In this document: positions 8,644 through 60,653 of the stretch, in pieces
Numbering within the stretch: the stretch's first letter is position 1
Layout of the letters: every line of letters begins with the position of its first letter
Source of the DNA: Candidatus Bathyarchaeota archaeon
Lineage (GTDB): Archaea; Thermoproteota; Bathyarchaeia; Bathyarchaeales; Bathycorpusculaceae
Reading direction: 5' to 3'
DNA: 64,000 bases
Assembly (NCBI GenBank): GCA_963702095.1
Contig: OY969706.1
Coordinates: 1,888,001 to 1,952,000 of the forward strand
Position numbers and translations under genes: made by a program
Notes under the pieces: generated by a model
What the model saw: the letters and a program-made list of their open reading frames with translations, nothing else
The model's database searches: none
What the model was told of the DNA's origin: nothing

Positions 8644-9204
8644 GTGGACGCGTTAACCATCCTCTTAATCGCAGTCGGCTTAGCCATGGACGCCTTCGCG
8701 GTTTCGATAGCAAGCGGCATGACCATTACGGGCAACAGGCACAGAGCTGGCTTGTTGACGGCGGCTGCTTTCGGCGGCTTCCAGATGATTATGCCGGTGA
8801 TAGGCTGGGCAATTGGCTTAAGCTTGGCAGATTTTATTTCAAGCATTGACCACTGGATCGCGTTTGGTCTCTTGGCGTTTATCGGCGCAAAAATGATCTA
8901 CGAGGGAACAAAAAAAGAGGAAAAACACAACAGCTCAACTGAATTAAAAATGCATTCGCTGCTGATTTTGGCAGTAGCAACCAGCATTGACGCCTTGATG
9001 GTTGGCTTAAGCTTTGCTTTCCTACAAACCTCAATTGCACTGCCAATCGCGGTTATCGGCGCAGTCACGTTTGGGCTGTCTCTTGTCGGCTTCTACTTTG
9101 GCTGTGGCTTAGGCAAAGTTTTCGGGCACAGAATAGAGATCGTCGGCGGGATTGTGTTGATTCTTATTGGCTTAAAGATTTTGCTTGAGCACCTGCTTGC
9201 TTAG
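8644..9204 (+). CDS. mntP: Manganese efflux pump MntP
   Basis: GLAMDAFAVS and ATSIDAL motifs. Confidence 0.92.
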   Translation: MDALTILLIAVGLAMDAFAVSIASGMTITGNRHRAGLLTAAAFGGFQMIMPVIGWAIGLSLADFISSIDHWIAFGLLAFIGAKMIYEGTKKEEKHNSSTELKMHSLLILAVATSIDALMVGLSFAFLQTSIALPIAVIGAVTFGLSLVGFYFGCGLGKVFGHRIEIVGGIVLILIGLKILLEHLLA

Positions 9205-10816
9205 TGCGCCTGCTTTTAGGCTTGAATTCTTCTCTGACTTTCATTTCACGGCGTTTTTGGTTGTAGCCTAAGGCGAAGTCGTGGGTTGCGTCTCGGATTT
9301 TTCGTAGCAGAAGCATCATGCGGCTGTTTTTTTCAAACACTTTGGGTGAGGGGTCGTCTGGCCTGTAGATTTCCTCGTGTTCCTTCGCCAATCCAATCAG
9401 GGGAACCATAAGCCCCAGCTTGTCCAACGCAGCTTTAGCTGCGCTGACCTGTCCGGGTCCACCGTCGATCATCACCAAATCTGGCAAGGGATTTTTTTCT
9501 TCAACTTGCCGCGTATAACGCCGGGCCACCACCTCGTTCATAGCTGCGAAGTCGTCTTGCCCCGCAAACGACTTGATTTTGAATTTGCGGTAGTTTTTTT
9601 TGTCAGGCTTCGCATCCTTAAACGCCACCATGCCTGAAACCACGTGTTCAGTGCCCAAGTTGGAGATGTCAAAGCACTCGATTAGGCGCGGCAACACAGG
9701 CAGATTGAGGTTGTTCTGCAAATCCACCAGTGCACTGTCCACTTCAAGGCTGGATTCCAGGTTTTTTTCTGCCAGTTTCAGCAGAGCCAGCTTATCCGCC
9801 TTTCTGGGGATGGTCAATGAGACGGGTGCAAGCCGCTTCGCCGCCAGAAACTCTTCAAGCGCCTTCTTTTCCTGCGGTTCCATCCAAACTGGCTTGTTGA
9901 CCAAGATTTCCCGTGGGATCTGGTTGCTGGTGTAGAAGGCTTTGAGGAATTCCTGCTCGATTTGGGGTTGGACATCTACGGTGAATTCTTTTTTACCCAA
10001 TAGTACGCCTTTGCGGATGCCCATCTGTACTGCATGCAGTTTCTCGCCGACCAATTTGAAAACCATGACGTCTTGGTCAAAGCGGCGTTCGTTATCGACG
10101 ATTTGGCGTTGGGTCAACAGCCGTATGGAATTGATCTGTTTACGCAGCTCCAAGGCTTCCTCAAACCGCTCGTTGGCTGAAGCGTCCTGCATCTGGTCAG
10201 TCAAACTGTCGATGGTCTGTTCGTAGTTGCCGCCTAGAAAAGACCGTGCCTGCTTAACCTGCTGCTCATACTGTTCGGCGGAGACGTTGCCGACGCATGG
10301 TGCGGTGCACATGTGGATGTGGTAGTTGAGGCAGGCGCGTTTGTGCAGGGTTTTGCAGGTGCGGAGTTTGAAGACGCGGACGACTGCGCGTTGGAGGTCT
10401 TGGCGTGTGAAGCCTTCGGTGTAGGGTCCGAAGGATTCGAGTTTGCGGCTAACTTTGCGGCTGGTCAAAACCCTTGGAAACTGTTCCCTTGTAAGCGAGA
10501 TGTAGGCGTAGCTTTTGGCGTCTTTTAAGTCGATGTTGTATTTAGGCGTGTGCCGCTTGATGAGTTTGTTCTCAAGTAGCAGCGCCTCAACCTCATGGTT
10601 AAGGATAATCCAGTCGATGCTCCGAATATGCAAGACAAGTTGGCGGGTTTTGGCAGGTTGATCGCCGCCTGAGAAGTAGCTTTTGACGCGGCTGCGAAGG
10701 TTCTTGGCTTTGCCCACATAGAGGATCTCCCCTGCTTCGTCACGGTAGATGTAGACGCCGGGCTCAGTTGGGATATCGCTGCTTTTGAATTCCGAGGGGT
10801 CGTTTAGGGGAATCAT
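9164..10816 (-). CDS. uvrC: Excinuclease ABC subunit C
   Basis: GIY-YIG domain (PGVYIY...YVGKAKNLRSRV), ECFDISN and IDGGPGQ motifs; C-terminal HhH domain not evident. Confidence 0.96.
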   Translation of the reverse strand: MIPLNDPSEFKSSDIPTEPGVYIYRDEAGEILYVGKAKNLRSRVKSYFSGGDQPAKTRQLVLHIRSIDWIILNHEVEALLLENKLIKRHTPKYNIDLKDAKSYAYISLTREQFPRVLTSRKVSRKLESFGPYTEGFTRQDLQRAVVRVFKLRTCKTLHKRACLNYHIHMCTAPCVGNVSAEQYEQQVKQARSFLGGNYEQTIDSLTDQMQDASANERFEEALELRKQINSIRLLTQRQIVDNERRFDQDVMVFKLVGEKLHAVQMGIRKGVLLGKKEFTVDVQPQIEQEFLKAFYTSNQIPREILVNKPVWMEPQEKKALEEFLAAKRLAPVSLTIPRKADKLALLKLAEKNLESSLEVDSALVDLQNNLNLPVLPRLIECFDISNLGTEHVVSGMVAFKDAKPDKKNYRKFKIKSFAGQDDFAAMNEVVARRYTRQVEEKNPLPDLVMIDGGPGQVSAAKAALDKLGLMVPLIGLAKEHEEIYRPDDPSPKVFEKNSRMMLLLRKIRDATHDFALGYNQKRREMKVREEFKPKSRRTKQAGAQAKSLSQ

Positions 10817-10889
10817 CTGTGTCGCTGAATACTTGACTCATCGTTGGATGCATTAAGCATTTCCCAAAGCCACATAAAATTTGGGGCGT

Positions 10890-11021
10890 GCTTGTTTTTT
10901 CTATAGTTGTTGTTGGCGAAAACCGCCTATACACTACAACAACCAACAGGCGGCTTAGGCGGGTGTGTTATGGCGTCAGGTTGCGTTTTGGGTTGCAGGC
11001 TGGTTGTGGCGGATTCTACAA
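10890..11021 (-). repeat. Dispersed intergenic element, copy A
   Basis: Reverse complement reads GTAGAATCCGCCACAACCAGCCTGCAACCCAAAACGCAA...GTTGTTG-TAGTGTATA-GGCG..CGCC-AA-CAACAAC-TATAGAAAAAA. Confidence 0.6.
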
Positions 11022-11271
11022 AGTTCAATTTGAGGAAGTTGATGCTCCCGTGAGCTTCCCCTCTTGTATGATAGGGCAAACTGTTTTTTTGTCTCTTTTA
11101 TGTCGATTCGGCGATTTTTAGGGTTCCACAAGGCTGCAGCTGGGCGGTTGTTTTTTTGTTTTACAAACGTTTGTTCGGAGAATTTTCCGTTTAATATTAC
11201 TGTATTCGCTAGTGTAGCCACATATTGTTATATTGTCGGAACTCATGGGGTCATGATGGGGTTAAGCAAAG

Positions 11272-13105
11272 ATGGGGTATTCTATTCAATCAAAAGCGGC
11301 TCCAGTGTCTGATTGGGCAAAAGCTGAACCGCTCCCGAAAATCGAGGACCATGCGCTGATTGGAGACATGCACTCCGCGACGCTCATAACCAAAGGAGGC
11401 ACTATCGATTGGCTCTGCCTACCGGCCTTTCGACTCCGACGCATGCTTCGCTGCGCTCTTGGGAACGGCTGAAAATGGGTACTGGCGGATTGCCCCCAGC
11501 GACGTCGCGGCTAAGACTTTGCGCCGGTATCGGAAGGACACGCTGATTTTAGAGACGGATTTCACCACTGAGGCTGGTACCGTCCGCTTGGTCGATTTTA
11601 TGCCACCTTGGGGAGGACGCGATCATTCGGAGATCTGCCGTAGTGTCGAGTGCCTTAATGGAGAAGTCCCGATGCGCTCCGAGTTCACCCCGCGATTTGC
11701 CTTCGGACGCGCAATTCCACGGTTTGATCAACTCGAAGAGGCTACACAGGCTCTGGCTGGACCTGACGCGCTCTACCTATTTGGCGGCCCAACCTCAGGT
11801 GCCCCGGCTGTAGCGACGGACTTTGTACTGTCCAAAGGAGACTTTGTGTCATACGTGCTTGCCGATTCGCGTTCATGGGAGGCTCCTCCACACCCTTCAA
11901 ACTACGCCAGGGCAGAGCGCGAAACAGAAGAGTACTGGAGGTGTTGGTGCTCAAAAATCCAGGCACCCGCCCGATGGCGCGACGAGGTCTATCGATCGCT
12001 AATCACACTCAAGGCGTGTTCCTACGAGCCGACAGGGGGCATTGTTGCTGCCCCGACAACGTCGCTGCCTGAAACTCCTGGTGGCGAACGCAACTGGGAC
12101 TACCGTTTCTGCTGGCTCCGTGACGCGGTACTTACGGTTAACGCGCTTACGCGCTCTGGACTTGGGGATGAGGCACTTTCTTTCGTCCGTTGGGTCCTGC
12201 GCGCCGTTGCCGGTGACCCTTCTCAGGTACAGATAATGTATGGCATCCGTGGCGAGCGTCGGCTCTCAGAGGTCGAGCTTGGGTGGCTTCCTGGTTACGG
12301 CGACGCAAAGCCCGTGCGGATTGGCAATGCTGCTTACGAGCAATTTCAGCTCGATGTTCTTGGGGAAGTCTCCGCCGTAGTCTATGAGGTAAGCAAGCGG
12401 CGTGGCATTCTCGGCCCCGATGCGGAGCGTGCGCTTTTTAATATTGCTCGCTACGTTTCAAACGCTTGGCGGCGACCAGACCGCGGCATCTGGGAGATGC
12501 GTGGACCTGAGCGAGCATTCACCGCGTCCAAGGTGTCAGCTTGGACATCGCTCGATAGGGCAATCCGGTACGTCGAGGAACATGGGCTACCCCAGCCTAT
12601 AGATGATCTTCGCGCCGCACGAAAAGAAATATTCGAAGAGGTTTGCCGCGAAGGATTCGATAAGGAGCGCAATACCTTCACACAGTACTATGGAGGTAAG
12701 GGGCTTGACGCCAGCCTTTTGTTCATCCCTATTTCCGGCTTCCTGCCGCCTAATGACCCACGGGTTCTGGGAACGGTCGCTGCAATCGAGCGCGAACTCC
12801 TCCAGGACGGGTTGGTATTGCGATTCAAGCCCGAGGGGGAGGTTGATGGACTCTCCGGCGACGAAGGGGTCTTCCTTGCCTGCTCGTTCTGGCTGGCGGA
12901 TGTTTACCATATGCAGGGGAGGGAGGAGGACGCCCATAGGCTGTTTGAACGGGTTCTTTCGCTGGCCAATGACGTTGGGCTACTCGCTGAGGAATATGAC
13001 CCAAAGGAAAAGCGGCAGCTTGGCAACTTCCCGCAGGCGTTCAGCCACTTCCCGCTGATCAACACGGCTTACCTGCTCTCGCAGGAGAAGCCAGCACCCC
13101 CCTGA
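11272..13105 (+). pseudogene. Glycoside hydrolase family 15 (glucoamylase/trehalase-like), split by a single frameshift near 11425-11430 (may be an assembly error)
   Basis: The N-terminal ORF (IEDHALIGDMHSATL...IDWLCLP) continues in another frame as FDSDACFAALLG into the 548-aa ORF carrying AAPTTSLPE, NWDYRFCWLRD, GIWEMRG and GNFPQAFSH. Confidence 0.88.
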
Positions 13106-13232
13106 AAGCGCCCAATGTAGGGCTTGAGAAGAAAATGCGAGGGCTCTGACGGTCGCGCGGTCAGTGTTCATTGATAGATATCGGGTTAAATGGAGATATT
13201 GCAGCTTAGTTCTTCTGGACCATTGATTGGGA

Positions 13233-16136
13233 TCATGATGGCTGTGTCACTGTCAAGGGTGCTTCTTGGGCTTTGCCTTTAAGTATCTTCTCCAAAAAAT
13301 GCCCAGTATAGCTGTGCCCAACTTTTGCGACTTCCTCAGGTGTACCCTGTGCTAGGAGTTCGCCGCCTGCTGCGCCGCCTTCAGGTCCTAAGTCGATGAG
13401 GTAGTCGCAGCTTTTGATGACGTCGAGGTTGTGTTCGATGATGTAGACTGTGTTGCCGTTGTCTACGAGGCGGTTGAGGACGCGGATGAGGCGTTTGGTG
13501 TCGTCGAAGTGCAGCCCGGTTGTGGGTTCGTCGAGCATGTAGATGACGTGCCCGGTTTTGTGTTTGCTGAGTTCTCGGGTGATTTTGATGCGTTGGCTTT
13601 CACCGCCTGAGAGCTGAGTGGAGCTCTGCCCCAGTTTGATGTAACCCAAGCCCACGTCGAGCAGAGTCTGCAGTTTACGGAAAACCCTCGGCGTGTTCTC
13701 GAAGAATTTGGCTGCCTCCTCCACAGTCATATCCAGCACCTCCGCGATGTTTTTGCTCTTGTACTGGATGTCGAGGGTTTCTTTGTTGTAGCGTTTGCCC
13801 TTGCATTCGCTGCATTGGACGTAGACGTCGGGGAGGAAGTTCATTTCTATGCGGATGACGCCGTCGCCTTGGCAGTTTTCGCATCTGCCGCCTTTGACGT
13901 TGAAGCTGAAGCGGCCTTCTTTGTAGCCTCGGGCTTTGGCTTCTTTGGTGGAAGCAAAAATCCTGCGGATTTTATCGAAGAGTTTGGTGTATGTGGCGGG
14001 GTTGCTGCGGGGTGTTCTGCCGATGGGGTCTTGGTCGATGACTATGACATTGCGGACGACTTCTGGTACGTCTAAGCCTTCGTGTTTGCCGACTTTGTCT
14101 ACTTGTTCGCCGAACATTTGGCACAATGCGGGGATGACTGTGAGGTTCATAAGTGTGCTTTTGCCTGAGCCTGAGACGCCTGTGACTCCGCAGAGGACGC
14201 CTAGGGGCAACTGTAGGCTGAGGTTTTTGAGGTTGTTCTCCTTGGCACCCTTAACGGTGATGTAATCGACGGGTTTTCGTCTCTCTGTAGGCACCTCGAT
14301 TTTGAGGTCGCCTGAAAGGTACTTGCCCGTGAGGCTTCGCTGGTTCGCCATGACTTCTTGGGGTGTTCCTTCGGCGACTATGTGGCCGCCATGCACTCCT
14401 GCGCCGGGTCCCATGTCCACAATGTAGTCGGCATGGCGCATCGTGTCCTCGTCGTGTTCCACCACGATTAGGGTGTTGCCTAAGTCGCGGAGTCGTTGCA
14501 GGGTGCTCAGCAGCTTGGCGTTGTCGCGTTGGTGCAAGCCGATGCTGGGTTCGTCGAGGATGTAGAGGACGCCCATGAGGTTGCTGCCTATCTGCGTGGC
14601 TAAACGGATGCGTTGGGCTTCTCCGCCAGAGAGCGTCTTTGCCGCGCGGGACAGGGAAAGGTAGCCTAACCCCACGTTTTTGAGGAAGCCCAATCTTTCG
14701 TTGATTTCTTTTAGCACCTGCTTAGCGATGGAGAGGTCTTTTTCATTGAGTTTGGGCGGCAGGTCATGGAAGAAATCTACTGACTCCTCAATCGACAAAT
14801 CCGTCACATCAATGATGCTTTTATCGAGAATCTCCACTGCCAACACCACGGGCTGGAGTTTTTTGCCGTTGCAGCCGTTGCAGGGGCGGGCAGTCATGAA
14901 TTTTTCTATGTCTTCTTTGCGCCATTCGCTCTCCGTTTGGCGGTAGAGCCGCATGGTTTGGTGGATGACGCCTTCCCAGCCGTCACGCATCCACATGTTT
15001 GCGCCGTTGGACCAGTTACCCACGATGGGTTCGCGGTCGCCGTAGAGCAGCACCTGCAACTGCGCCTCAGTAAAGTCCTTGAGGGGGGTAAACACGTCGA
15101 AACCATGCTTCTTGCCCACTATCGCCAACTGCTGGGCTCGCCAACTGAGGTCCATGGTGCCCTTGTAAACTGCCAACCCCCCATCCATAATGGAGAGGTT
15201 TTTGTCGGGGATGACTTTGTCAGGGGTGACTTCGGTGATTTCTCCCAAACCGTGGCAGACTGGGCATGCGCCAAACGGAGAGTTAAAGCTAAACATGCGG
15301 GGTTCAAGGCTTTCGAAGACGATTTCGGGGTGGTTTGGGCAAGCGCCAAAAGTGCTGTACATGGTTTCGCCTTCGAAGCGTTCCAGCTCTTTTTTCTTGC
15401 TTGCATCATCATCCGATGCATCAATAACAATCATCGTTCCCTTGCCAGTTTTTAGGGCCCCTTCGACGGCTTCGGCGACGCGGGAGCGTTCCTCATCTAC
15501 GATGGCGACTGTGTCTATGACAGCTTCAATCCAGTGCTTCTCATAGCGAACCAGCTTAACCTCTTCTTTGATGTTGTCGGCTTCGTAGATTTTTTGGTCA
15601 ACACGGATTTTTGTGTAGCCCTCTTTTTTGAGGTCATCGAAAACCTGTTCATGGGTGCCTTTCATGCCTCGGATAATCGGAGCTAAGAACACGAGGACTT
15701 TGTCTTTCTCTGCCATGATGAGGCTGGTGATGTTTTCGGGGCTTTGGGGGTGGATGCTGCTGCCGCATTTGGGGCAGTGGTGGGTGCCGATGCGGGCATA
15801 AAGCAGGCGGAGGTAATCGTAGATTTCGGTGACTGTGCCTACGGTGCTGCGGGGGTTTTTGCTGGTGCTCTTCTGCTCGATGCTAATGGCGGGGGATAAG
15901 CCGTCGATGCTGTCAACGTCGGGTTTGTCCATTAACCCCAGAAATTGGCGGGCATAGGCGGATAAGCTTTCGACATAGCGGCGTTGTCCCTCGGCGTAGA
16001 TTGTGTCAAACGCCAACGTGGATTTGCCTGAGCCTGAGAGCCCAGTTATAACTATCAATTTGTTGCGGGGCAACTCTAAATCTATGTTTTTTAAGTTGTG
16101 CTCCCGTGCACCCTTAATGGAAATGTTATCACGCAT
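13233..16136 (-). CDS. uvrA: Excinuclease ABC subunit A
   Basis: Two ABC modules (GLSGSGKS, GVSGSGKS, LSGGE) and zinc fingers; 967 aa. Confidence 0.98.
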   Translation of the reverse strand: MRDNISIKGAREHNLKNIDLELPRNKLIVITGLSGSGKSTLAFDTIYAEGQRRYVESLSAYARQFLGLMDKPDVDSIDGLSPAISIEQKSTSKNPRSTVGTVTEIYDYLRLLYARIGTHHCPKCGSSIHPQSPENITSLIMAEKDKVLVFLAPIIRGMKGTHEQVFDDLKKEGYTKIRVDQKIYEADNIKEEVKLVRYEKHWIEAVIDTVAIVDEERSRVAEAVEGALKTGKGTMIVIDASDDDASKKKELERFEGETMYSTFGACPNHPEIVFESLEPRMFSFNSPFGACPVCHGLGEITEVTPDKVIPDKNLSIMDGGLAVYKGTMDLSWRAQQLAIVGKKHGFDVFTPLKDFTEAQLQVLLYGDREPIVGNWSNGANMWMRDGWEGVIHQTMRLYRQTESEWRKEDIEKFMTARPCNGCNGKKLQPVVLAVEILDKSIIDVTDLSIEESVDFFHDLPPKLNEKDLSIAKQVLKEINERLGFLKNVGLGYLSLSRAAKTLSGGEAQRIRLATQIGSNLMGVLYILDEPSIGLHQRDNAKLLSTLQRLRDLGNTLIVVEHDEDTMRHADYIVDMGPGAGVHGGHIVAEGTPQEVMANQRSLTGKYLSGDLKIEVPTERRKPVDYITVKGAKENNLKNLSLQLPLGVLCGVTGVSGSGKSTLMNLTVIPALCQMFGEQVDKVGKHEGLDVPEVVRNVIVIDQDPIGRTPRSNPATYTKLFDKIRRIFASTKEAKARGYKEGRFSFNVKGGRCENCQGDGVIRIEMNFLPDVYVQCSECKGKRYNKETLDIQYKSKNIAEVLDMTVEEAAKFFENTPRVFRKLQTLLDVGLGYIKLGQSSTQLSGGESQRIKITRELSKHKTGHVIYMLDEPTTGLHFDDTKRLIRVLNRLVDNGNTVYIIEHNLDVIKSCDYLIDLGPEGGAAGGELLAQGTPEEVAKVGHSYTGHFLEKILKGKAQEAPLTVTQPS

Positions 16137-16221
16137 TACTCTAACCAGTTCCCTTCTCAGTTATGTGGCAGGTTCTAGCTTCTTTTAACCCCTAAGATTA
16201 GAACCTTATTGCATCAAACCC

Positions 16222-18180
16222 CTAAATTTCGGGTTTAACCGCCGCGTTTTCCATCTTGTGAGCCAACGCCTTGCGCAACTCAGCAATCGCATCGCGGATT
16301 TCAATGGCTTTCTCGAACTCCAATTTCTCCGCTGCCTCACGCATCTTCGCGTCTAACTCGACAATTTGGCGTTGGATGTCGGATTTGGCGAGGTGTTTGG
16401 TGCCTTTGATGGTGCTTTCTTTTATGGTGACGGCTTTGACGATTGTTGCCGGCGTTATTCCATGTTGCTGGTTGTAGCGTTTCTGTACGTTTCGGCGGTA
16501 ATAGGTAAGTTCCATGGCGCGTTTGATGCTTTGGGTTTGGACGTCGGCGTATAGGTGGACTTTGCCGTTGACGTTGCGGGCTGCTCTGCCGATGGTTTGG
16601 ATGAGACTGCGTTCGTCGCGGAGAAAGCCTTCTTTGTCGGCGTCTAAGATGAATATGGTGGCAACTTCAGGAATGTCTAAGCCTTCGCGGAGTAGGTTGA
16701 TGCCGACGAGGATGTCGTATTCGCCTACACGGAGCTGCCGCACCAGTTCAATGCGGTCGAGGCTCTCTATGTCGCTGTGCAGGTATCGGACGCGGAAGCC
16801 CTCTTTAACAAGGTAATCGGTCAAATCCTCAGCCATCCGCTTGGTTAAGGTGGTGACGAGTACGCGGTCGCCCCGCTCAATCGTCTTCTTCGCCTCACCC
16901 ATGAGATGCCGCATCTGCCCCTCGATAGGGTGCATCTCCACTTCAGGATCCAAAAGTCCCGTTGGTCGCGTAATCAATTCGACGGGGGGCCCGCTCTTTT
17001 CCAGTTCATACTCAGCGGGGGTTGCTGAGGTAAAAAGGACTCGCCCCATTTTCCTTTCAAATTCCTCGAATTTTAAGGGGCGATTGTCGAGTGCACTGGG
17101 AAGGCGGAAACCGAAGTCGACTAGGTTTTTTTTGCGGCTGTAGTCGCCGTTGTACATGCCTCTTGCTTGGGGGATGGTTTGGTGGCTTTCATCGATTATG
17201 AGTAAGTAGTCTTTGGGGAAGTAGTCGATGAGTGTAAAGGGGGGTGCGCCGGGTCGGCGTCCGTCGAAGTGGCGGCTGTAGTTTTCCATGCCTGCGCAGA
17301 AGCCGATTTCACGGATCATCTCTAAATCGTAGTTTGTGCGTTGTTTCAGCCGCTGTGCTTCAAGGGGCGGAAGCACTTTTAGGCGTTGTTCAAGCTCCTG
17401 CTCGATATGCTCCAGTGCCAATGCATGTTTCTCTTCGGGGACGACGTATTGGCGGGCGGGGTAAAGGGTAAGTTGGTCGAGGCTGTTCTGCACGTTACCA
17501 GTGATGCGGTGCACCTCCTTAATTTTGGAGACGATGTTGCCCGTTATTTCGACTCGGAGGATGTCATTCTCGTAAGATGGCACTACGTCGACTGTGTCGC
17601 CTCGGACGCGGAACCTGCCGGGTTCCAACACCTGGTCGTTGCGTTCATACTGCATGTCCACCAAGGAGTGGATAAGCTGTGTTCGGCTCATGTGGCCGCC
17701 CACTTCGAGTTTGATGGCCATTGTGCGGAAGTCGTCAGGGTTTCCTAAGCTGTAAATGCAGCTAATCGAAGCTACGATGATGGTGTCGTTGCGGCTCACG
17801 ATGCTCGACACGGCGTGCATGCGCATCTTTTCGATTTCGTCGTTGACTGTGCTGTCTTTTTCGATGTACATGTCCTGTGCTGGCAGGTAGGATTCGGGTT
17901 GGTAGTAATCGTAAAATGATATGAAGAATTCAACTCGGTTATGGGGGAAAAGCTCTTTGAGTTCACCGTAGAGTTGGGCTGCGAGTGTTTTGTTGTGTGC
18001 CAAAATCAACGTGGGCTTCTGCAGTTTGCTGATCACGTTTGCCATTACATAGGTTTTGCCGCTGCCCGTTATGCCTAAAAGCGTCTGCTTGTCTTTGCCC
18101 CCATAATTGTGGACTAGCTGCTCAACGGCGGCTTCTTGTCCAGGCGAAATTTTGTATGGCGAAACAAGCTCGAACTGCAC
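16222..18180 (-). CDS. uvrB: Excinuclease ABC subunit B
   Basis: GITGSGKT, YDYYQPE, DESH, LREGLDIPEV and C-terminal UVR domain. Confidence 0.98.
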   Translation of the reverse strand: MQFELVSPYKISPGQEAAVEQLVHNYGGKDKQTLLGITGSGKTYVMANVISKLQKPTLILAHNKTLAAQLYGELKELFPHNRVEFFISFYDYYQPESYLPAQDMYIEKDSTVNDEIEKMRMHAVSSIVSRNDTIIVASISCIYSLGNPDDFRTMAIKLEVGGHMSRTQLIHSLVDMQYERNDQVLEPGRFRVRGDTVDVVPSYENDILRVEITGNIVSKIKEVHRITGNVQNSLDQLTLYPARQYVVPEEKHALALEHIEQELEQRLKVLPPLEAQRLKQRTNYDLEMIREIGFCAGMENYSRHFDGRRPGAPPFTLIDYFPKDYLLIIDESHQTIPQARGMYNGDYSRKKNLVDFGFRLPSALDNRPLKFEEFERKMGRVLFTSATPAEYELEKSGPPVELITRPTGLLDPEVEMHPIEGQMRHLMGEAKKTIERGDRVLVTTLTKRMAEDLTDYLVKEGFRVRYLHSDIESLDRIELVRQLRVGEYDILVGINLLREGLDIPEVATIFILDADKEGFLRDERSLIQTIGRAARNVNGKVHLYADVQTQSIKRAMELTYYRRNVQKRYNQQHGITPATIVKAVTIKESTIKGTKHLAKSDIQRQIVELDAKMREAAEKLEFEKAIEIRDAIAELRKALAHKMENAAVKPEI

Positions 18181-24154: not shown

Positions 24155-26449
24155 CTAAACAAATTGCTCCAAGAAGGTGCTCTGTTGACAACCAACAGCA
24201 TCTTTTACAATTTTTGCTGTATATCCCTTAAAGCTCAACAAGGTGGCAGCTGAACAATACAAAAGGTTCAGGTACTGCTTTATGTCTGGGTTAACGTTTT
24301 TTTCCAGCAACTGCTCAGCTTTTACCCTTCGATTATAACGCTTACTATCTGAATTTGTAAAAACAAAGCTTATGTCATTGCCTCCATTAATGTCCACGCC
24401 AGCTCGCTGCAGTTCCTGGGCTGCTATAAGCTGGCTTACATGATGCCTGTAATGAGTGGGATTCTTAGACAAATGCTTCGTTATAACTAAATCCGAGACG
24501 GGAATTTCACCATTAATTAGCCGCTGGCGATAATTCTTCACTACACTTAACGCTTCGGGGATTTTTCTCATAAAGTCTTCCGAGTTTCTAGCTTGCGATA
24601 AAACCCCAATCATTTCCATCTGGGCATTATAGACAAACTTGGGTGTATCACTTTTCCTCGCATCTAAGCCTCTGATCTTTACTTTACCCGTATTCATGAC
24701 GCCAAAATACCGATTTAGCACACTAACGTTAGAATGCAGCCGAGACGGAGAAAAAACGATCCACTTATAGAACCCTTCAAAATTAATCGGTACCCCAATT
24801 TCTTTAGTTATCTTTTCGCAGAGCGACTGGTATTGTTCTATTGTCGAGTTCTTTTTTTTAAGCCATAACGAATCCACGATGCCATGAATAACCTCAAAGC
24901 CCTCCTCTTCTGCAATATGTGTTGCCCTGAGAAACTCTTCTCTAGCAAAAGCACAGACGCCGATATGCCCATCAACAGTCCCAAATTTAGAATTGCTAAA
25001 ACCCAAATAGCCAAAACAGGTAACCAATATCCACTTCAGTGCTGATTGGCGTCTGTCATAAATCTGCTTTAACTCATTGTCGTCTGTTTGGTCCCGCATT
25101 TGCTTATATGTTAAGCGTTTAGTTAGCGCTAGATGCACCGTTTTTGGAACCATGCCTCTACGTTTAGTGCAGATGTGATAGTTCAGGTCTGGAATTCTAA
25201 GCGGTGAGTCCGGACAGCATTTACAGAGCACTGTTTCAGCTGAAATGTTGTATTTCTCCATTAAAGAGGGATACATAGATGAGAAGTCTAATTCGGCTAC
25301 TGAATCGTGAATGCCGAGGCGCGGTTCATAGATAAAGCCTCCGCGGTCGCCGATCAGTAGGTCCATGGCTGACTTGAATGTTTCAGGGATTTTCTTGTTC
25401 CTAGGCAACAAAATGTCGTCTTTGAGGGCTTGATAGAACTGTATAGAAGACATACTTGACCCAATAGAGAATCGCGCAGCCGTATGCAGTGGGACACGGC
25501 AGGTTCTTGCTACTTCAATGAGGCCATCTAAGCCAGTTTCGCGTACTACGAACGTGTTGTTGTCATCAACGTGGATTCTGCCATGTAGGCGAACGGTTCC
25601 TGCACGGTAAAACGTGTGCCCATAGGCGAAATAGGTTTTGCCAGTTTTGGGCGTCTGCTCAAGGGGTATATTGTCTCTGCTTAGGTTGAATTCTTTTAGG
25701 ACATTGTTACTTTTTGCTCTCCCTAATAGATAGGGAAAAAGGAAAGAGTCTCCTAGGCTGGTTAAGATTATGTCTGGATCCATCGCCTGTATAGCATAAA
25801 CCAGTTGCAGCAGTTTTGTGGCTTCGTCGCCATAATCGATGACTATGTCTTTTTTGCCTTCCTGCGTTAACCTGATAATTTCTATCTGGTCATCAAAGCT
25901 TGGAAGAGCACCCGTCTTTGCTACATCCACTTCCAGCCTAACAACCCGCAACTCAGGAACCACATAATTGGTGCTCTCCACCGAATCCAGTAGAGTGTAC
26001 ACTAAGCCCTCTTTGGATACTTTGATTTCTATATGGGCAAGCGGAAACAGGTCATGCTCAAAAATGTAGGCGCGGTCGCTTTGTATATCACAGTTATGCA
26101 GTTCATACCTTAAGTAATCGCCCAGCCGCAGAATCTCAAGCTGTAACGCTCTGGTTTGTCTGCAATCTTTAACCGTTATCTCTAGTACCCTTGATTTTTC
26201 ACTATCTACGGGGCTTGCATATTTGTAAACAACGCGTATGGATTCTATTTTTTGATGGTTGCATAATTTGGTGATTACCCCTTCAAGTTCCTCTTGCTTG
26301 GCTGACACGTAAATGTGAGGTTGAAACTTGTCTGTTAATTTAATTCGTTCGCCCTGTTCTGTTATTATCCAGACAGCTATTTTGCCGAAGTCAGAGGGGT
26401 AAACATCTAGCAGCCAGCCTTTAACTGCCTTTGCAGTATTTTGTGGCAT
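24155..26449 (-). CDS. Family B DNA polymerase, PolB2 subgroup (degenerate motifs)
   Basis: DFSSMYPS (motif A), RQSALKWILVTCFGY (motif B), HGIVDSLW in place of YGDTDS (motif C); no recognisable DIE exonuclease motif. Confidence 0.9.
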   Translation of the reverse strand: MPQNTAKAVKGWLLDVYPSDFGKIAVWIITEQGERIKLTDKFQPHIYVSAKQEELEGVITKLCNHQKIESIRVVYKYASPVDSEKSRVLEITVKDCRQTRALQLEILRLGDYLRYELHNCDIQSDRAYIFEHDLFPLAHIEIKVSKEGLVYTLLDSVESTNYVVPELRVVRLEVDVAKTGALPSFDDQIEIIRLTQEGKKDIVIDYGDEATKLLQLVYAIQAMDPDIILTSLGDSFLFPYLLGRAKSNNVLKEFNLSRDNIPLEQTPKTGKTYFAYGHTFYRAGTVRLHGRIHVDDNNTFVVRETGLDGLIEVARTCRVPLHTAARFSIGSSMSSIQFYQALKDDILLPRNKKIPETFKSAMDLLIGDRGGFIYEPRLGIHDSVAELDFSSMYPSLMEKYNISAETVLCKCCPDSPLRIPDLNYHICTKRRGMVPKTVHLALTKRLTYKQMRDQTDDNELKQIYDRRQSALKWILVTCFGYLGFSNSKFGTVDGHIGVCAFAREEFLRATHIAEEEGFEVIHGIVDSLWLKKKNSTIEQYQSLCEKITKEIGVPINFEGFYKWIVFSPSRLHSNVSVLNRYFGVMNTGKVKIRGLDARKSDTPKFVYNAQMEMIGVLSQARNSEDFMRKIPEALSVVKNYRQRLINGEIPVSDLVITKHLSKNPTHYRHHVSQLIAAQELQRAGVDINGGNDISFVFTNSDSKRYNRRVKAEQLLEKNVNPDIKQYLNLLYCSAATLLSFKGYTAKIVKDAVGCQQSTFLEQFV

Positions 26450-26687
26450 CTAAAGCCTTCTCTAAACGCATAATCTTCTTTTGTTGTGCAAGGAGAATCG
26501 AAATAACCATGGGCTCGAAAAGGATCGGCTGAGTTGCGTTGCTTCCGGCAGATGCATAGCTTCGGCAAGCATCCATTAGGGATTCAAAGGCTTCCCTGTC
26601 TTCAGTTCTTAATGCTTTGGCGAAGCTGCTCCAGCGGTTTATCTCGTCTTCTATAGCCATGCGGTAGGATTCAACTGTTTTTCCCAT
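26421..26687 (-). CDS. Small PolB2-associated helical protein (arCOG07300-like)
   Basis: MGKTVESYRMAIEDEINRWSSFAKALR...; sits between the RadA-like gene and polB2 with overlapping ends. Confidence 0.8.
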   Translation of the reverse strand: MGKTVESYRMAIEDEINRWSSFAKALRTEDREAFESLMDACRSYASAGSNATQPILFEPMVISILLAQQKKIMRLEKALDATKYCKGS

Positions 26688-27406
26688 TATGCCTTCTCTC
26701 CCATGAAATCAGTTAAAGTTGGATTTTCTGAATACAATTCGGCAGAGCCCAAGTTGAGGTATGGATGCTTGTCAAGGCTGATGGTTTTACCGTAGTTTGT
26801 ATGCTTGAAAGATAATATGACGTTTGCTTTTGCATGGGCTAGTCCTTGAAGGGAAGTGTTCCTTTTTGATTTTTCGTGAGGATGGTATGTTGCGATTAGG
26901 ATGAGGCGGTTTTCTTTGGCAAAGTTTGAAAGGTAACCCATTAGTTGACTGAAGACACGCTGTGCCTCCTCTTCGGCGATATTGTCTAAAAATAAACCCG
27001 CAATGTCTGAAATTATGACCAGTTTAGCGCTATACTTTTTGGTGGCTTGTTGTAGTTGTTGCATGATTAAGAAGATTTCTTGGTAGGCTGTGAATGCTCT
27101 TGAAATGTAGATGTTATCTAGTACTCGCTTGGGGTTGAGCTGGTATATTTGAGCGGTTTTTGCTATTTTATAGAGCCTGAAAGTTATTCCGCCTCCATCG
27201 ATAAAAATAACGTTGGATTCTAAGCCGCCAAGCTGTTTGGGTAACTGTGCTCTTACACATAGCAATGAAGTTAGTGATGAGGATGCGCCATATATGAGGG
27301 CAAAGTCTCCTTCGGCGAAGCCTGGGAAAAGTGTATCGGCCTTTTTTATGCTCAAGGGAAAAATTGGTTGGTAAAGCATGGGCTTGGCTACTTGATTTCG
27401 ACTCAT
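26687..27406 (-). CDS. Inactivated RadA/RecA-fold protein
   Basis: VRAQLPKQLGGLESNVIFIDGG and IYISRAFTAYQ RadA-like motifs; Walker A degenerate (IYGASSSLT). Confidence 0.85.
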   Translation of the reverse strand: MSRNQVAKPMLYQPIFPLSIKKADTLFPGFAEGDFALIYGASSSLTSLLCVRAQLPKQLGGLESNVIFIDGGGITFRLYKIAKTAQIYQLNPKRVLDNIYISRAFTAYQEIFLIMQQLQQATKKYSAKLVIISDIAGLFLDNIAEEEAQRVFSQLMGYLSNFAKENRLILIATYHPHEKSKRNTSLQGLAHAKANVILSFKHTNYGKTISLDKHPYLNLGSAELYSENPTLTDFMGEKA

Positions 27407-27655: not shown

Positions 27656-29164
27656 TTACATGCCTTGTTTTAGTCTTCGGTAGGTTGTGTAGTCTACGTA
27701 TTCTATGAATGGGTTTTCTGCTAGGAATTTGACGGTGATTTTTTGGCGGCTGCGTTTTTCTGGTAGTTGGCTGGTGGTGTGGAGTAAGTATGCGTCGCTG
27801 CCTGCGCCTGAACCGTAACTGGTAACCAAGATTCGCTCGTCTGGCTTAGCAATATCCAAAATTGCCGCTAACCCAATCAACGAGGCGCCGCTGTAGGTGT
27901 TGCCGAACTTTGTCATCTGAATCGCAGGCATGAACTGTTCGTCTTTGAAGCCTAAGTCTCTTGCAACCCGCACGGGGAACGTTGGGTTGGGTTGGTGGGG
28001 CACGAAGTAATTGATGTCGGCTGCTTTGAGGTTGCATTTTTCCATGAGTTTGGCGGCTGCTTTTCGCACGTGTTTGTGGTAGGCGGGGTCGCCTGTGAAT
28101 CTGCCGCCGTGCATGGGGTAGGGTTCGCCGTCACGCCGCCAAAAGTCCGGGGTGTCGCTGGTGCAACTGTACCATCCTTCAACTTCGGCGATTACGTCTT
28201 TTTTGCCGAAAATGTAGGCTGCTCCGCCGTAACCGACGAATGCGTCGAGTTCGCCTCCGGGGCAACCGCGTGGCGCGGCTTGAGAGTTGTCTGCGCCTAT
28301 GACCATGGCGTAGTTTATGTCTGATTTGGGGTAGCTGACCAGTGCGCAGGCGTCTTTGAACACGCTTGAAGCGGCTTTGCATGCGAATTCCGTGTCGACT
28401 GCGTCTACGTCTTGGACGTCGCCGTCTTCTTTGCCGAGTTGGAGAACCTGCGCGACTTTAGCTGCTATCGGCTTAACGGCATAGGGGTTGGATTCGCTGC
28501 CAGCGTAGACTTTTCCAATCAACGCGCTGTCAAGGCCCGAGTGAATTAACGCCAATTTCCCAGCTTCAACTGCGGCGGTCACCGAGTCTTCGTCGATGAA
28601 GGGAACTGCGCGTTCCAAGCTATCCTCTTTGATTCGGAACCGCGAGGAATATGCGCCGTAGCCGACGATGCCTGGCAAATCGTAGTCTTTGGCGGGTTGG
28701 ATTACTTTGTATTCTTGGTGGGGGTAGTATTCGTCTGCCAATGTGAAGGCTAGGGAAATAGTGGGGACAACATCGCCTTTTCCCACGGAGTAGCGTCGTC
28801 GGAAGCGGGGCACAACTTCTCTGCCCTCTAAGCTTGCGAGGTCGATTTTGCCGCCGTCGCATACCAGTTGGTCGGTTATTCTGGCGGGGACACGTATTTT
28901 GCCGTCGTGGAAAGAAACGATGCCGTAGACGAAGCTGTTGAGTTTGGCGAATTTGTTGGTGGGTTCGTTTATGTAGGTGCAGAGTTCAAGGGTGCCTTTG
29001 TCGTAGAAGAGGTCGATGCTGTCCATTTTGCCGTAGCTTTTACGACCGCAGTTGCTGCAGTAATCGCGGACTTCAAAGTATTCTTTGCCGCAGCATTGGC
29101 ACCGACAAGCCTTCAACCGGTCGCCCAAATACGATACGCGTCTCTCGATTGGTTCACTGCTCAT
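27656..29164 (-). CDS. HMG-CoA synthase with fused N-terminal DUF35 (Zn-ribbon/OB-fold) domain
   Basis: N-terminal CQCCGKEYF..RDYCSNCG and OB-fold; C-terminal GSESNPYAVKP, DTEFACKA, PHQPN, GNTYSG and SYGSGAGSDA. Confidence 0.92.
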   Translation of the reverse strand: MSSEPIERRVSYLGDRLKACRCQCCGKEYFEVRDYCSNCGRKSYGKMDSIDLFYDKGTLELCTYINEPTNKFAKLNSFVYGIVSFHDGKIRVPARITDQLVCDGGKIDLASLEGREVVPRFRRRYSVGKGDVVPTISLAFTLADEYYPHQEYKVIQPAKDYDLPGIVGYGAYSSRFRIKEDSLERAVPFIDEDSVTAAVEAGKLALIHSGLDSALIGKVYAGSESNPYAVKPIAAKVAQVLQLGKEDGDVQDVDAVDTEFACKAASSVFKDACALVSYPKSDINYAMVIGADNSQAAPRGCPGGELDAFVGYGGAAYIFGKKDVIAEVEGWYSCTSDTPDFWRRDGEPYPMHGGRFTGDPAYHKHVRKAAAKLMEKCNLKAADINYFVPHQPNPTFPVRVARDLGFKDEQFMPAIQMTKFGNTYSGASLIGLAAILDIAKPDERILVTSYGSGAGSDAYLLHTTSQLPEKRSRQKITVKFLAENPFIEYVDYTTYRRLKQGM

Positions 29165-30363
29165 TGCTTCTTCTCCCCAAAAATAGTAACATAAGCCTTA
29201 GTTCCAAAACCCTCAAACTCCACAACTCCCCCATGCCGCAATCCATTGGGCACAGTGATTTGGCGTTCAGCTGCTTCTCCGCGGAGCTGACGGAAAACCT
29301 CAAACACCTGCGCTCCACCCGTGGCGCCCAAGGGGTTGCCGTCTGCTTTTAAGCCGCCGTCCGTGTTAACATACACCTCTTTGCCGCCCAACTCGTAGCA
29401 TAGTTCCCCATTTTGGCTGCTTTCATAGATGCTTTTCCAAGCGGTTCCGGATGCTGCCAAGCCGAGGTCTTCAAGCGAAACCATCTCCATAACGGTAGAT
29501 TGGTCGTTTAATTCAATAAGCTGCAGATCTGAAGGTGCAACTCCAGCGGTTATGGAGGCTTTTTTCATGGCTAACTGGGCAGCAACGAAGCTTGAGAGGT
29601 CTTCTCTTGCGGGGTAATTGAGGTAGTCGGTTGCTGCACCGCAGGCTAACACGTAGATAGGGCGGTTAGTCATTTTGTTAGCGACTGTTTCACTGGTTAA
29701 CACAAGTGCTGTGGCTCCGTCTGAGATGGGTGCGAAGTCGTAGAGCCCAAGCGGTTTATGGGCTGCTTTACGTGCGTTGAGCACTTGGTCGATGGTGATT
29801 TTTCTTTGGAACTGGGCATACTTGTTTTTGGCGCCGTTAGCATGGTTCTTAACTGAAACCTGCGCCAAGGCAACGTCGAGTTTTTCCTGGTCCTGTCCTG
29901 TTATGCCGTGTTTTTTGATGTAGGCGCGGAGCATTAGTTCATGGTTGGATTCGGGGGTTCCGCCTGCGTAGTAGCTCCAGGGGTCGTCGAGGAGCATGAG
30001 GTCGTCGCGGATTTTGTCCCAGCGGTCTGTCATCTTTTCTATGCCTCCGACTAGCACTGTGTTGTAGACGCCTGCTTCGATTGCGTGGCAAGCGGTCATT
30101 AATGCGGCGCTAAAAGATCGGGTGACCTCCATGGGTACGTGTAACTCGGTTAATTCTGAGAGGAAGCCTTCTTCGAGGCCAAGTTTGTTGGTGATTGGTA
30201 AGAAACAGTCGGACATGTAACAGGCTTCCAAATTTTTGCGTTCCATGTTACATTCTCTGGAGGCGGCTAACCAGGCTTCCTCGATGAGTTTCTCGGGTTC
30301 TTTGCCGTAGTGCTCACCGAACTTGGTTCTGCCAACAGCAACTATGGCTGGGCGTTTCTGCAT
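29161..30363 (-). CDS. Archaeal thiolase-fold protein with substituted catalytic residues
   Basis: VGRTKFGE, GGIEKMTD, APISDGATA and NTDGGLKADGNPLGATG motifs; the usual nucleophilic Cys, HDCF and GHP motifs are altered. Confidence 0.88.
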   Translation of the reverse strand: MQKRPAIVAVGRTKFGEHYGKEPEKLIEEAWLAASRECNMERKNLEACYMSDCFLPITNKLGLEEGFLSELTELHVPMEVTRSFSAALMTACHAIEAGVYNTVLVGGIEKMTDRWDKIRDDLMLLDDPWSYYAGGTPESNHELMLRAYIKKHGITGQDQEKLDVALAQVSVKNHANGAKNKYAQFQRKITIDQVLNARKAAHKPLGLYDFAPISDGATALVLTSETVANKMTNRPIYVLACGAATDYLNYPAREDLSSFVAAQLAMKKASITAGVAPSDLQLIELNDQSTVMEMVSLEDLGLAASGTAWKSIYESSQNGELCYELGGKEVYVNTDGGLKADGNPLGATGGAQVFEVFRQLRGEAAERQITVPNGLRHGGVVEFEGFGTKAYVTIFGEKKQ

Positions 30364-30688: not shown

Positions 30689-32080
30689 TTATCGGCGTCT
30701 CTTAAAGAAAACAACCACGCCAACAACCACACCCACCACAGCAGCCACTAAGGCGCCGATGATGATAAACGCCAAGGGAAAAAGCTCAACGCTAAACGTC
30801 AAGGCTTCAGAAGCACCCATATTGCCATAGGTATCGTTAACGTAGACAGTGACGCTGTGGGAGCCACCGGAAAGCCCCGTCAAAGTAAAGTTACCAGATA
30901 TGGTAACGTTTTGTTGCCCATCGAGGCTATAACCAACCCAATCCACCACCTTATCTACACAAAAAACCAAAGGCACGGTCGAGTTAGTAATAGCCGTCCC
31001 ATTAAGCGACGACTCAAGCACAACATTTGGAGGAGAATGCTCTAAGACATACACAGGATCAGACGAACCATAACCAAACGGTGTATACACTTCATTATAC
31101 CTATCTTGGACGGCTCCATAAATAGGGTCAGGAAAAAGAAAAGGCGTCCCTGCAAAAGCATATAACCTATCTTTTAAAACCGCAACCGTGAGGTAGCATC
31201 TAGCTGTAGGCATCGGTTTGCCAAAGGTCCAATTATTGTTTTTCATATCATACACTTGCACGAGATTTTCAGCCGCATAATCGCCTAAGTGTGATCTGTA
31301 ACCGCCAAAAAGGTAAATTCTTCGGGGCGCCATCTCCCCTGACACAGCAGCCGCACCCGTTCCCATCACCGTAACAGGCACTGAAGCACCTAAGCTCCAC
31401 GAATTATTTGAAGGATCGTAAATCTGAACAAAATTGGTATTTATTTCTCCTATAAGAAAATCATCTTGCCCTCCTATCGCGTAAATTTTGCCTTCACTCA
31501 CTGCCGAACTACAACTAGCAACTGGATAGAGCATTGGCGCTTTAGTAGTCCATGAGTCGTTGGCAACATCGTATACTTCATTCAAAGCACTAGCATGAGG
31601 ATCTGGACTACCTCTTCCCCCGATCAAATAAATCTGACCCCCTATTGCGGCGGCTTCTAGCTGTTCTCTTTTTTCTGGTAACGGCTGTTTAGACTGCCAT
31701 GTATCAGTTGAGGGATCATATACCTCATTTACATCAAGGCTAACTGGGTTTCCATGGTTCCAATCATATCCTCCAATAGCATAAATCTTACCTTGGCAAA
31801 CTGCCATAGCAAACCACATCCTTGATGTAGGCATGGGTGCCTTGGCAGTCCACTTATCCATCTCTGGATCATATTGATAATTGCTCGACCCGCCTATAAC
31901 GTAGATTTTCCCATCCACAACACCCGCTCTACCCCCAACAACAGCGTCTGGCACCGGCGCCGCTGCCCGCCAAGTATTCTCACTATCGGTACCGGCTGAA
32001 GCAGGATCAACATAAACCAGCAAAGATGACGATAGAAGAGCAACTGACAAAATGACAGACAGGACACAATCAGCTTTCAT
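30689..32080 (-). CDS. Secreted Kelch-repeat protein with C-terminal Ig-like domain and TM anchor
   Basis: Six GKIYxIGG...EVYDP..W repeats, signal peptide, TM plus KRRR. Confidence 0.9.
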   Translation of the reverse strand: MKADCVLSVILSVALLSSSLLVYVDPASAGTDSENTWRAAAPVPDAVVGGRAGVVDGKIYVIGGSSNYQYDPEMDKWTAKAPMPTSRMWFAMAVCQGKIYAIGGYDWNHGNPVSLDVNEVYDPSTDTWQSKQPLPEKREQLEAAAIGGQIYLIGGRGSPDPHASALNEVYDVANDSWTTKAPMLYPVASCSSAVSEGKIYAIGGQDDFLIGEINTNFVQIYDPSNNSWSLGASVPVTVMGTGAAAVSGEMAPRRIYLFGGYRSHLGDYAAENLVQVYDMKNNNWTFGKPMPTARCYLTVAVLKDRLYAFAGTPFLFPDPIYGAVQDRYNEVYTPFGYGSSDPVYVLEHSPPNVVLESSLNGTAITNSTVPLVFCVDKVVDWVGYSLDGQQNVTISGNFTLTGLSGGSHSVTVYVNDTYGNMGASEALTFSVELFPLAFIIIGALVAAVVGVVVGVVVFFKRRR

Positions 32081-56782: not shown

Positions 56783-56825
56783 ATAACACATTGCTGTATT
56801 GATGTGAACCATACCTGGAGCATGA

Positions 56826-59877: not shown

Positions 59878-60653
59878 CTGATTTCCTCGACACATTAGCC
59901 AAGGATGCTTTGGACAGTATTGATAGCGGATACTATAAGCACTACAGAACCGTTAAGCCCGTCCGCGCGAGCCTAAAAGCGGCGGTCTTAACATCCAAAG
60001 CTAACGCGGTAATAGCTGAAATAAAAGCGGCTTCCCCCTCCGTTGGAACCATCCGTAGCACTGTGGACGCGGCAGCCACAGCACAGGCGATGCAGAGGGG
60101 CGGTGCAGCAGGCTTATCGGTGCTAACAGAGCCCAAACACTTCAACGGCTCACTACAGGCGCTTAGCCAAGCTCGAGCAGCCGTGAAATTACCCATCCTT
60201 ATGAAGGATATTGTTCTGGTGCAAAAGCAAATTGAGGTGGCCTCCAAGCTGGGTGCCAATGCGATACTATTGATTGAGGCGCTTTTTGATAGGGGCTACT
60301 GCGACGTTGATGACGTAGAGCAAGCCATCGCTAATGCACATGGTTACGGGTTAGAGGTGCTGCTTGAAGCGCATACCGAGGCAGAATATCTTAAAGCGGT
60401 TCAGACCAAAGCGGACATAGTCGGCATCAACAACCGCAACCTAGCCACGCTACAAATCGACTTAGGCACCACCAAAACCATCCTACAGCGGCATGGCAAA
60501 CACGACAAAACCGTGATATCCGAAAGCGGCATCAAAACCGCCGACGACCTCAGATACCTGCGTAGCTGCGGCGCCGACGCTTTCCTAGTCGGCTCCAGCA
60601 TCATGTTAACAGAAGACATTGAATCGAAAGTCAGGGAGTTTGTAGAAACATGA
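59874..60653 (+). CDS. trpC: Indole-3-glycerol-phosphate synthase
   Basis: [23 protein letters not shown] and SESGI motifs. Confidence 0.96.

Follow-up and report, generated by a model that had tools for sequence, protein, structure and literature searches.

What role is left for a thiolase-fold protein that lacks the catalytic residues of a thiolase and whose gene runs directly into that of an HMG-CoA synthase? The question is raised by two overlapping genes in a 64,000-nt stretch of DNA from a Candidatus Bathyarchaeota archaeon (assembly GCA_963702095.1, contig OY969706.1, positions 1,888,001 to 1,952,000), which we call the window and which lies on the single 2.94-Mb contig of genome G000 in our set (G000:C1:1888001-1952000). 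The first gene encodes a 400-amino-acid (aa) protein, termed here the dead thiolase; the second encodes a fusion of a DUF35 domain with 3-hydroxy-3-methylglutaryl-CoA (HMG-CoA) synthase (HMGS). The archaeal thiolase/HMGS/DUF35 complex is the textbook route for driving the endergonic first step of isoprenoid-lipid synthesis. We conclude that the 400-aa protein is most likely a non-catalytic partner or subunit of HMG-CoA synthase, and we consider it likely that it is a pseudo-enzyme derived from the thiolase of this complex, which partners HMGS via DUF35 while a separate thiolase supplies acetoacetyl-CoA.

Loss of the thiolase catalytic residues in a retained fold

Both open reading frames (ORFs; Table 1), their overlap and the strings VTRSFSAA, ELNDQS and GNPLGATG had been reported in a first-pass annotation of the window, and all are present as described. 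By sequence, the best solved relative of the 400-aa protein is the thiolase chain 6esq_A (165 bits), and when the two are aligned VTRSFS falls on ACASGS, ELNDQS on EVHDCF and GNPLGATG on GHALGATG. In MAFFT alignments the nucleophilic Cys is removed by a 4-residue deletion, and both catalytic His are gone, with Asn at the positions of the HDxF His and of the GHP His. The protein matches Pfam Thiolase_C_1 (84 bits) and Thiolase_N (38 bits) and falls under all NCBIfam cut-offs, the best model being NF004720 (279.5 bits, cut-off 420); NF053570, the model for archaeal acetoacetyl-CoA thiolase, gives 230.5 (cut-off 600).

The thiolase fold is retained. An AlphaFold 2 (AF2) model of the dead thiolase (predicted local distance difference test (pLDDT) 93.9, predicted template modelling score (pTM) 0.94) again has 6esq_A as its top Foldseek match, with a template modelling (TM) score of 0.91/0.93 and a root-mean-square deviation (rmsd) of 2.2 Å. 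The similarity to three thiolase-fold proteins that have no nucleophilic Cys is lower: TM 0.79 and rmsd 4.5 Å for Ltp2, 0.81 and 4.3 Å for Sal, and 0.82-0.83 and 3.0-3.3 Å for the trypanosomal TbSLP. The secondary structure of the model places the old nucleophile elbow at R82/S83, where strand 78-81 gives way to helix 84-96, and the S-D-G loop, which we take to line the pantetheine tunnel in thiolases, is still present.

Table 1. Features of the dead thiolase and of the fusion gene, in window coordinates
Feature	Position	Strand	Basis or remarks
Cys-less thiolase-fold protein (dead thiolase), 400 aa	29161..30363	(-)	ORF; Pfam, AF2, Foldseek
Former nucleophile loop VTRSFSAA, residues 80-87	30103..30126	(-)	4-residue deletion, no Cys; R82 where relatives have Glu
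ELNDQST replacing EVHDCFT, residues 284-290	29494..29514	(-)	Asn for His (most relatives have Tyr), Gln for Cys, Ser for Phe
GNPLGATG replacing GHPxGATG, residues 342-349	29317..29340	(-)	His to Asn
ATGA stop/start overlap of the two genes	29161..29164	(-)	GGGGAG 9 nt upstream of ATG
Fusion ORF DUF35::HMGS, 502 aa	27656..29164	(-)	ORF
DUF35 domain, about residues 1-140	28745..29164	(-)	probable zinc ribbon (C22/C25/C36/C39) and OB fold; predicted docking surface for dead thiolase
Archaeal-type HMGS domain, about residues 160-502	27656..28687	(-)	E224, C262, H390, N422

The altered sites are conserved in a protein under purifying selection

The dead thiolase is not peculiar to this genome. More than 120 database clusters are 77-95% identical to it; their labels name Bathyarchaeia or Bathyarchaeota, and many read 'acetyl-CoA C-acetyltransferase'. 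Canonical catalytic motifs are found in none of 121 cluster representatives at 66-95% identity (0/121), and Protein Atlas gave generic thiolase clusters only. GNP is present in 121/121, and the position of the old HDxF His is occupied by Asn in 63, Tyr in 53, Cys in 2, Ser in 1 and Pro in 1. The catalytic residues are likewise gone in all 28 genomic orthologues (28/28); the nucleophile column is a gap in 26/26 clade members, and 21 of the 26 dead thiolases in alignment A1 carry YDQS.

This loss is confined to particular sites. Dead thiolases keep 50 of the 62 columns that canonical relatives conserve, vary in 4 and have fixed another residue in 8 (E82R, G84F, A142E, C210F, H286Y/N, F289S, H343N and G384E), all in or adjoining the catalytic motifs; over the whole protein, 102/400 positions are invariant in the clade. 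Pairs with unsaturated dS give the dead thiolase a dN/dS of 0.028-0.096 and the fusion one of 0.036-0.095, so that purifying selection on the dead thiolase is strong and on a par with that on HMGS.

Two other Cys had been singled out beforehand as residues that might occupy the active site and overturn the idea of a dead enzyme, C92 in TACH and C53 in SDCF. C92 is 96% conserved in the dead-thiolase clade, but it is inherited from intact relatives: together with C48 it also occurs in the catalytically intact sister thiolases, beside their real nucleophile. C53 is not conserved. Both were rejected as substitute nucleophiles.

A DUF35-HMGS fusion as the predicted binding partner

The fusion retains the hallmarks of an archaeal HMGS. 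Residues 184-496 match the HMGS chain 6esq_I (267 bits), and the protein passes the NCBIfam model for archaeal HMGS, NF003274 (369 bits, cut-off 244). At its N-terminus, residues 17-132 match the DUF35 chain 6esq_E (37 bits, E 1.4e-8), while the DUF35 part stays under the cut-off of Pfam zf-ChsH2 (16.9 bits, cut-off 23.2). All orthologues compared (24/24) share the four catalytic HMGS residues and the four Cys of the zinc ribbon. These results bear out the first-pass annotation in its claims that HMGS keeps its Glu, Cys and His and that DUF35 is N-terminal.

A model of the complex between the dead thiolase and the fusion reached an ipSAE of 0.81 (runs 0.82, 0.79 and 0.81), compared with 0.00 for the best control; in a benchmark the same mark was reached by 116/157 solved complexes and by 2/215 mismatched pairs. 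The runs share at least 97% of contacts, with a partner pLDDT of at least 92. On the fusion side the listed contacts all lie within residues 10-139, the DUF35 domain; on the dead-thiolase side they lie at residues 116-150, 201-204 and 249-256, the first stretch containing the clade-specific residues S130, E138, E142 and L145. The dead thiolase is thus predicted to bind the fusion through DUF35, with the reservation that this pass may be a memory of 6ESQ/6ET9, because a similar complex has already been solved.

Co-distribution with archaeal-type HMGS

We called the dead thiolase present in a genome at E <= 1e-90, in a class sample of 121 genomes and an order sample of 151 genomes, each of the latter at least 90% complete. 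It occurs in 28/121 genomes of the class, all but one of them in the window's own order, and in 136/151 genomes of that order. In 27/27 relatives inspected in the class sample the next gene is a fusion of about 500 aa; in two of these relatives a contig end interrupts the pair.

The 15 genomes of the order without a dead thiolase were sorted by their HMGS. Nine have an HMGS that is 454-468 aa long and belongs to the bacterial/haloarchaeal/eukaryote type (as assigned by NCBIfam in two, and as judged from score and length in the other seven). One has a classical unfused HMGS adjoining a thiolase, in one the fusion stands at a contig start (contig break), one has an HMGS of fusion length, and in three no HMGS was found. 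The dead thiolase is lost along with the short archaeal HMGS, and its role therefore appears tied to that enzyme. The thiolase+DUF35 pair is kept in three inspected non-carriers with the long HMGS, and in all relatives inspected the live thiolase retains its own DUF35. The replacement of archaeal fused HMGS and dead thiolase by the 454-468-aa HMGS is seen in several genera of one family (loci L100-L102 of G048, G014 and G043; also G144, G150, G168, G171, G180 and G191).

Possible sources of acetoacetyl-CoA

Another thiolase is present in 130/136 carriers, as counted by family membership. In 119 of the 136 it is a stand-alone archaeal thiolase (that of G000 being a split copy, as described below), in 9 a bacterial-type thiolase (PF00108, 193-279 bits) and in 2 another archaeal paralogue; in the remaining 6, which are 91-97% complete, none was found. 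The first-pass annotation had proposed that acetoacetyl-CoA must come from elsewhere, by a variant entry into the mevalonate pathway. The first half of this proposal holds, but 'elsewhere' is in most carriers probably an ordinary second thiolase and not a variant pathway. We infer that this second thiolase supplies acetoacetyl-CoA. In the two sampled genomes of genus g5 (G075 and G190; 95% and 93% complete) the dead thiolase is the sole thiolase-family gene seen.

Within G000 the fusion is the only HMGS, and HMG-CoA reductase is present. The second thiolase lies at C1:1180783-1181935(-), 0.74 Mb from the dead thiolase; it carries EAACGSSG, EVHDCF and GHPVGATG, is 33% identical to the dead copy, and precedes a stand-alone DUF35 of 133 aa (together locus L002, G000:C1:1180377-1181935). 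Compared with three congeners, however, it is split into two frames by one extra C within a Trp codon (TGG to TGCG) in YVAWPLKLYDCS, so that the search for a second thiolase, suggested in the first-pass annotation, turned up the pair without showing an intact copy. Measured against the nearest congener with unsaturated dS, dN/dS is still about 0.05 in both halves. In the 64-kb window two genes that are otherwise intact, TrpB and a glycoside hydrolase family 15 (GH15) hydrolase, also carry a single-base frameshift each, and the assembly is 90% complete, compared with 95-100% for five congeners in the class sample. Because of these further frameshifts and this completeness, assembly error and real decay of the split thiolase are indistinguishable, and the insertion may be either. 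A 3-hydroxyacyl-CoA dehydrogenase as another source of acetoacetyl-CoA was sought through PF02737, which matched nothing in G000 or G026; matches elsewhere were weak Rossmann ones only.

Origin of the dead thiolase

A maximum-likelihood tree of 50 rows unites the dead thiolases in one clade on a stem of length 0.84 (ultrafast bootstrap/SH-aLRT support 100/100) and joins them to live thiolases that adjoin DUF35-HMGS fusions in other Bathyarchaeia (99/97); the stand-alone thiolases with a DUF35 form a separate clade (95/89). The fusion-adjacent live thiolases are also the closest catalytic relatives of the dead thiolase, at 41% identity. Judged from these sequences, there was a single loss of catalysis, in a lineage that had a stand-alone thiolase as well.

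The first-pass annotation had further linked the substitutions to the fusion, and this link does not survive: an operon of the same design, with a thiolase followed by an N-terminal DUF35-HMGS fusion, holds an intact EAACAS/HDCF/GHP thiolase in at least four other Bathyarchaeia (G006, G056, G095 and G003). A fifth such operon, in G052, has the thiolase N-terminus with the CxS region masked (L061; the live loci together are L055-L058 and L061). A joint origin of fusion and dead thiolase is ruled out by these operons, and the fusion predates catalytic loss, because intact thiolases already adjoin DUF35-HMGS fusions in other Bathyarchaeia.

Loss of the nucleophile is also seen outside this clade. 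In Thermoplasmatota HMGS-thiolase-DUF35 operons, a small and biased sample, 3/11 full-length loci have Ser or Asp in place of the nucleophile Cys and 8/11 keep it, and the HDCF Cys is absent in all 11. Among the nearest 50%-cluster representatives, 18/49 lack the nucleophile Cys, mostly with both His kept. Given such Cys-less partners in some Thermoplasmatota and in 18/49 clusters, the phenomenon may be widespread.

Several related loci in other Bathyarchaeia depart from this pattern. In G004 a fusion-adjacent thiolase (L054 4900-6084) has degenerated independently and in part, with no Cys in the nucleophile loop, HDAT, and GHP retained. Seven loci (L052, L053, L059, L060, L062, L063 and L065) encode 500-560-aa proteins with HMGS at the N-terminus, some 170 further aa of unexplained sequence at the C-terminus and no adjoining thiolase. 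At L064 a thiolase-like gene does adjoin and the HMGS extension matches DUF35, making this a C-terminal fusion.

Neighbouring genes and other frameshifts in the window

Directly downstream of the fusion, on the same strand (window 24155-27406), lie genes for a family-B DNA polymerase and for a Rad51/RadB-like protein of 239 aa, together with an ORF of 88 aa. On the upstream side of the thiolase-like gene, and close to it (30689-32080), is a Kelch-repeat beta-propeller protein that starts with a signal-like segment and carries at its C-terminus a hydrophobic anchor whose last residues are KRRR. A promoter and terminator scan, whose coverage does not extend to archaeal promoters, gave no signal above shuffles. 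A cluster of bacterial-type uvrC, uvrA and uvrB occupies 9164-18180 of this archaeal window.

The tryptophan synthase beta (TrpB) frameshift lies at 61555-61630 (ORF 60650-61618), where one G appears to be lost in CCGGAA at DYPGVGP/EHSYLK; the C-terminal 75 or so residues run on in another frame to about 61840, and the remaining trp operon looks intact. Upstream of the TrpE ORF (57153-58247) the frame stays open for about 110 codons more (56825-57153) and encodes conserved TrpE N-terminal sequence with no ATG, GTG or TTG, pointing to an unusual start or another lesion. In the GH15-like gene (11380-11470; ORF 11459-13105) the N-terminal 60 or so residues (IEDHALIGD...DWLCLPAF) lie in another frame, with an extra T in a T-run and a shift into FDSDACFAALLG.

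Comparison with known complexes and enzymes

The best matches of all three parts of the Bathyarchaeon pair are chains A, I and E of the Methanothermococcus thermolithotrophicus complex (6ESQ/6ET9), which has the same three modules and in which the DUF35 cleft contacts the thiolase (PMC6996347); the contact modelled here also runs through DUF35. The archaeal complex is built from two dimers of HMGCS, two of thiolase and four copies of DUF35, with a shared CoA site and the thiolase dimers at the core of the assembly, and archaeal HMGCS is shorter than stand-alone types by 50-100 residues (PMC11522927). In that complex HMGS alone is inactive and the thiolase (ACAT) alone insoluble (PMC12960953), and by analogy the HMGS of the window may still need its dead-thiolase partner. 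Unlike the M. thermolithotrophicus enzyme, the thiolase here lacks the Cys and both catalytic His, HMGS carries DUF35 as an N-terminal fusion, and a second, live thiolase+DUF35 pair sits elsewhere in the genome. With no thiolase catalytic residues in the sequence, channelling via the active site of the dead thiolase would be impossible.

The retention of a dead thiolase-fold subunit has precedents. PhlABC, MucABC (SmaATase) and the Pseudomonas fluorescens ACAT/HMGS-DUF35 system are likewise tripartite with one dead but retained subunit, and there too the HMGS-like subunit can carry a fused DUF35 (PMC12960953). They are a mirror image of the present case: in these bacterial complexes the dead subunit is the HMGS-like one and the ACAT-like one is live, with its Cys, whereas here the ACAT-like protein is dead and HMGS alive; their DUF35 fusion is C-terminal and this one N-terminal (PMC12960953). 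No Cys is found in the dead thiolase at the position of the acetylated catalytic Cys of PhlC and MucB (Cys88 and Cys87, as defined in PMC12960953). Ltp2-ChsH2(DUF35), Sal-Shy(DUF35) and TbSLP share with the dead thiolase a thiolase fold without the nucleophilic Cys and, in many of its members, the change of the HDCF His to Tyr, and the aldolases Ltp2 and Sal also share a DUF35 partner. They differ in that Tyr is not conserved in dead thiolases, in the lower structural likeness given above, and in context, which is steroid catabolism for the aldolases and the mevalonate pathway here. The fusion-adjacent live thiolases of other Bathyarchaeia have the same operon architecture and form the sister clade; unlike the dead thiolases, they keep EAACAS, HDCF and GHP. 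A literature search that left aside subscription journals and supplements brought up no paper in which a dead thiolase accompanies a live archaeal HMGS.

Discussion

We propose that the dead thiolase arose from the archaeal complex's thiolase subunit and has lost acetyl-CoA condensation. A short archaeal-type HMGS would need a thiolase-shaped partner, held via DUF35, for stability and to complete its CoA-binding site, and this need would be the reason that the dead thiolase is kept. The two genes would be translated as a coupled pair, the dead thiolase would dock on the DUF35 domain at the N-terminus of HMGS, and HMGS would condense acetyl-CoA with free acetoacetyl-CoA from a separate, catalytically normal thiolase, in this genome the thiolase+DUF35 pair 0.74 Mb away. 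If acetoacetyl-CoA is made by a separate thiolase, direct channelling between the two active sites would have been given up. The scaffold reading offered by the first-pass annotation is thus upheld by the lost catalytic residues, purifying selection, unchanged fold, predicted DUF35 docking and loss together with archaeal-type HMGS; the different chemistry that it offered alongside is, in our judgement, improbable.

That chemistry could take the form of an Ltp2/Sal-like aldolase that joins acetoacetate and acetyl-CoA to give HMG-CoA, and the mevalonate pathway would then have a truly variant entry. Aldolases of the thiolase fold that pair with DUF35 do exist and use the Tyr of a YDxF motif (PMC12329534); the YDQS string of most orthologues, the near-invariance of the replacement residues and the few carriers with no other thiolase fit such a role. 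Yet this Tyr (motif as defined in PMC12329534) is Asn in the present protein and varies between Asn and Tyr across the family, the model is much closer to 6esq_A than to Ltp2 or Sal, and the proposal is further weakened because HMG-CoA formation is already covered by the adjacent HMGS with its full catalytic tetrad. An enzyme that is still an acetoacetyl-CoA thiolase with an unconventional nucleophile, for instance Ser83, Ser85 or Cys92, is one that we regard as highly improbable: Ser and Thr flank the old nucleophile position and Cys92 is well conserved, but Cys92 sits beside a real nucleophile in the intact sisters, as does Cys48, and lies about 9 residues into helix 84-96, off the elbow, and both catalytic His are gone. 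In relatives the loss of one is enough to nearly abolish activity, the H284A mutation (HDxF His) of an archaeal ACAT abolishing HMG-CoA formation and H294Y nearly abolishing the activity of PfACAT (PMC12960953).

The dead thiolase might instead be an adaptor that recruits the live thiolase/DUF35 pair, in a mixed dead/live dimer or a supercomplex, with acetoacetyl-CoA still channelled to HMGS. Thiolases do act as dimers at the core of the solved complex (PMC11522927), the live thiolase has a DUF35 of its own in each inspected relative, and continued channelling would remove the thermodynamic objection discussed below; we nevertheless think this unlikely, given that nine carriers use a bacterial-type thiolase that would hardly fit the same interface and that the dead and live copies are so divergent. 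A small probability also goes to the dead thiolase being a functional acyl-CoA-handling subunit, either as a receiving site for acetoacetyl-CoA or docking site to any live thiolase, or as a new catalyst built around R82, E382 and E384.

Several observations weigh against our reading of the dead thiolase as a non-catalytic partner. The replacement residues R82, D-Q-S, GNP, E382 and E384 are almost invariant, a constraint exceeding the obvious need of a passive scaffold. The 1:1 complex model lists no contact between the dead thiolase and the HMGS domain, and it cannot separate real binding from resemblance to 6ESQ. Without channelling, the endergonic thiolase step is exposed. The six carriers in which no second thiolase was found include both sampled genomes of genus g5. 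In G000, finally, no thiolase (PF00108) was found other than the split copy, and the search for a 3-hydroxyacyl-CoA dehydrogenase also came back empty, so that no intact source of acetoacetyl-CoA was found in this genome.

On balance we still favour the non-catalytic partner. A new chemical entry into the mevalonate pathway is probably not what this locus represents; the change is probably organisational, an uncoupled thiolase with no channelling. Were the new-catalyst option true, lineages in which no further thiolase is detectable (genus g5, with G075 and G190) could start the mevalonate pathway without a classical thiolase. Public records label dead thiolases 'acetyl-CoA C-acetyltransferase', and metabolic reconstructions therefore count a thiolase that is none. 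A whole order of abundant Bathyarchaeia keeps the architecture with a dead thiolase, the structural role being separated from the catalytic one, and if the protein is a non-catalytic partner of HMGS, channelling would be dispensable where a second thiolase is present.

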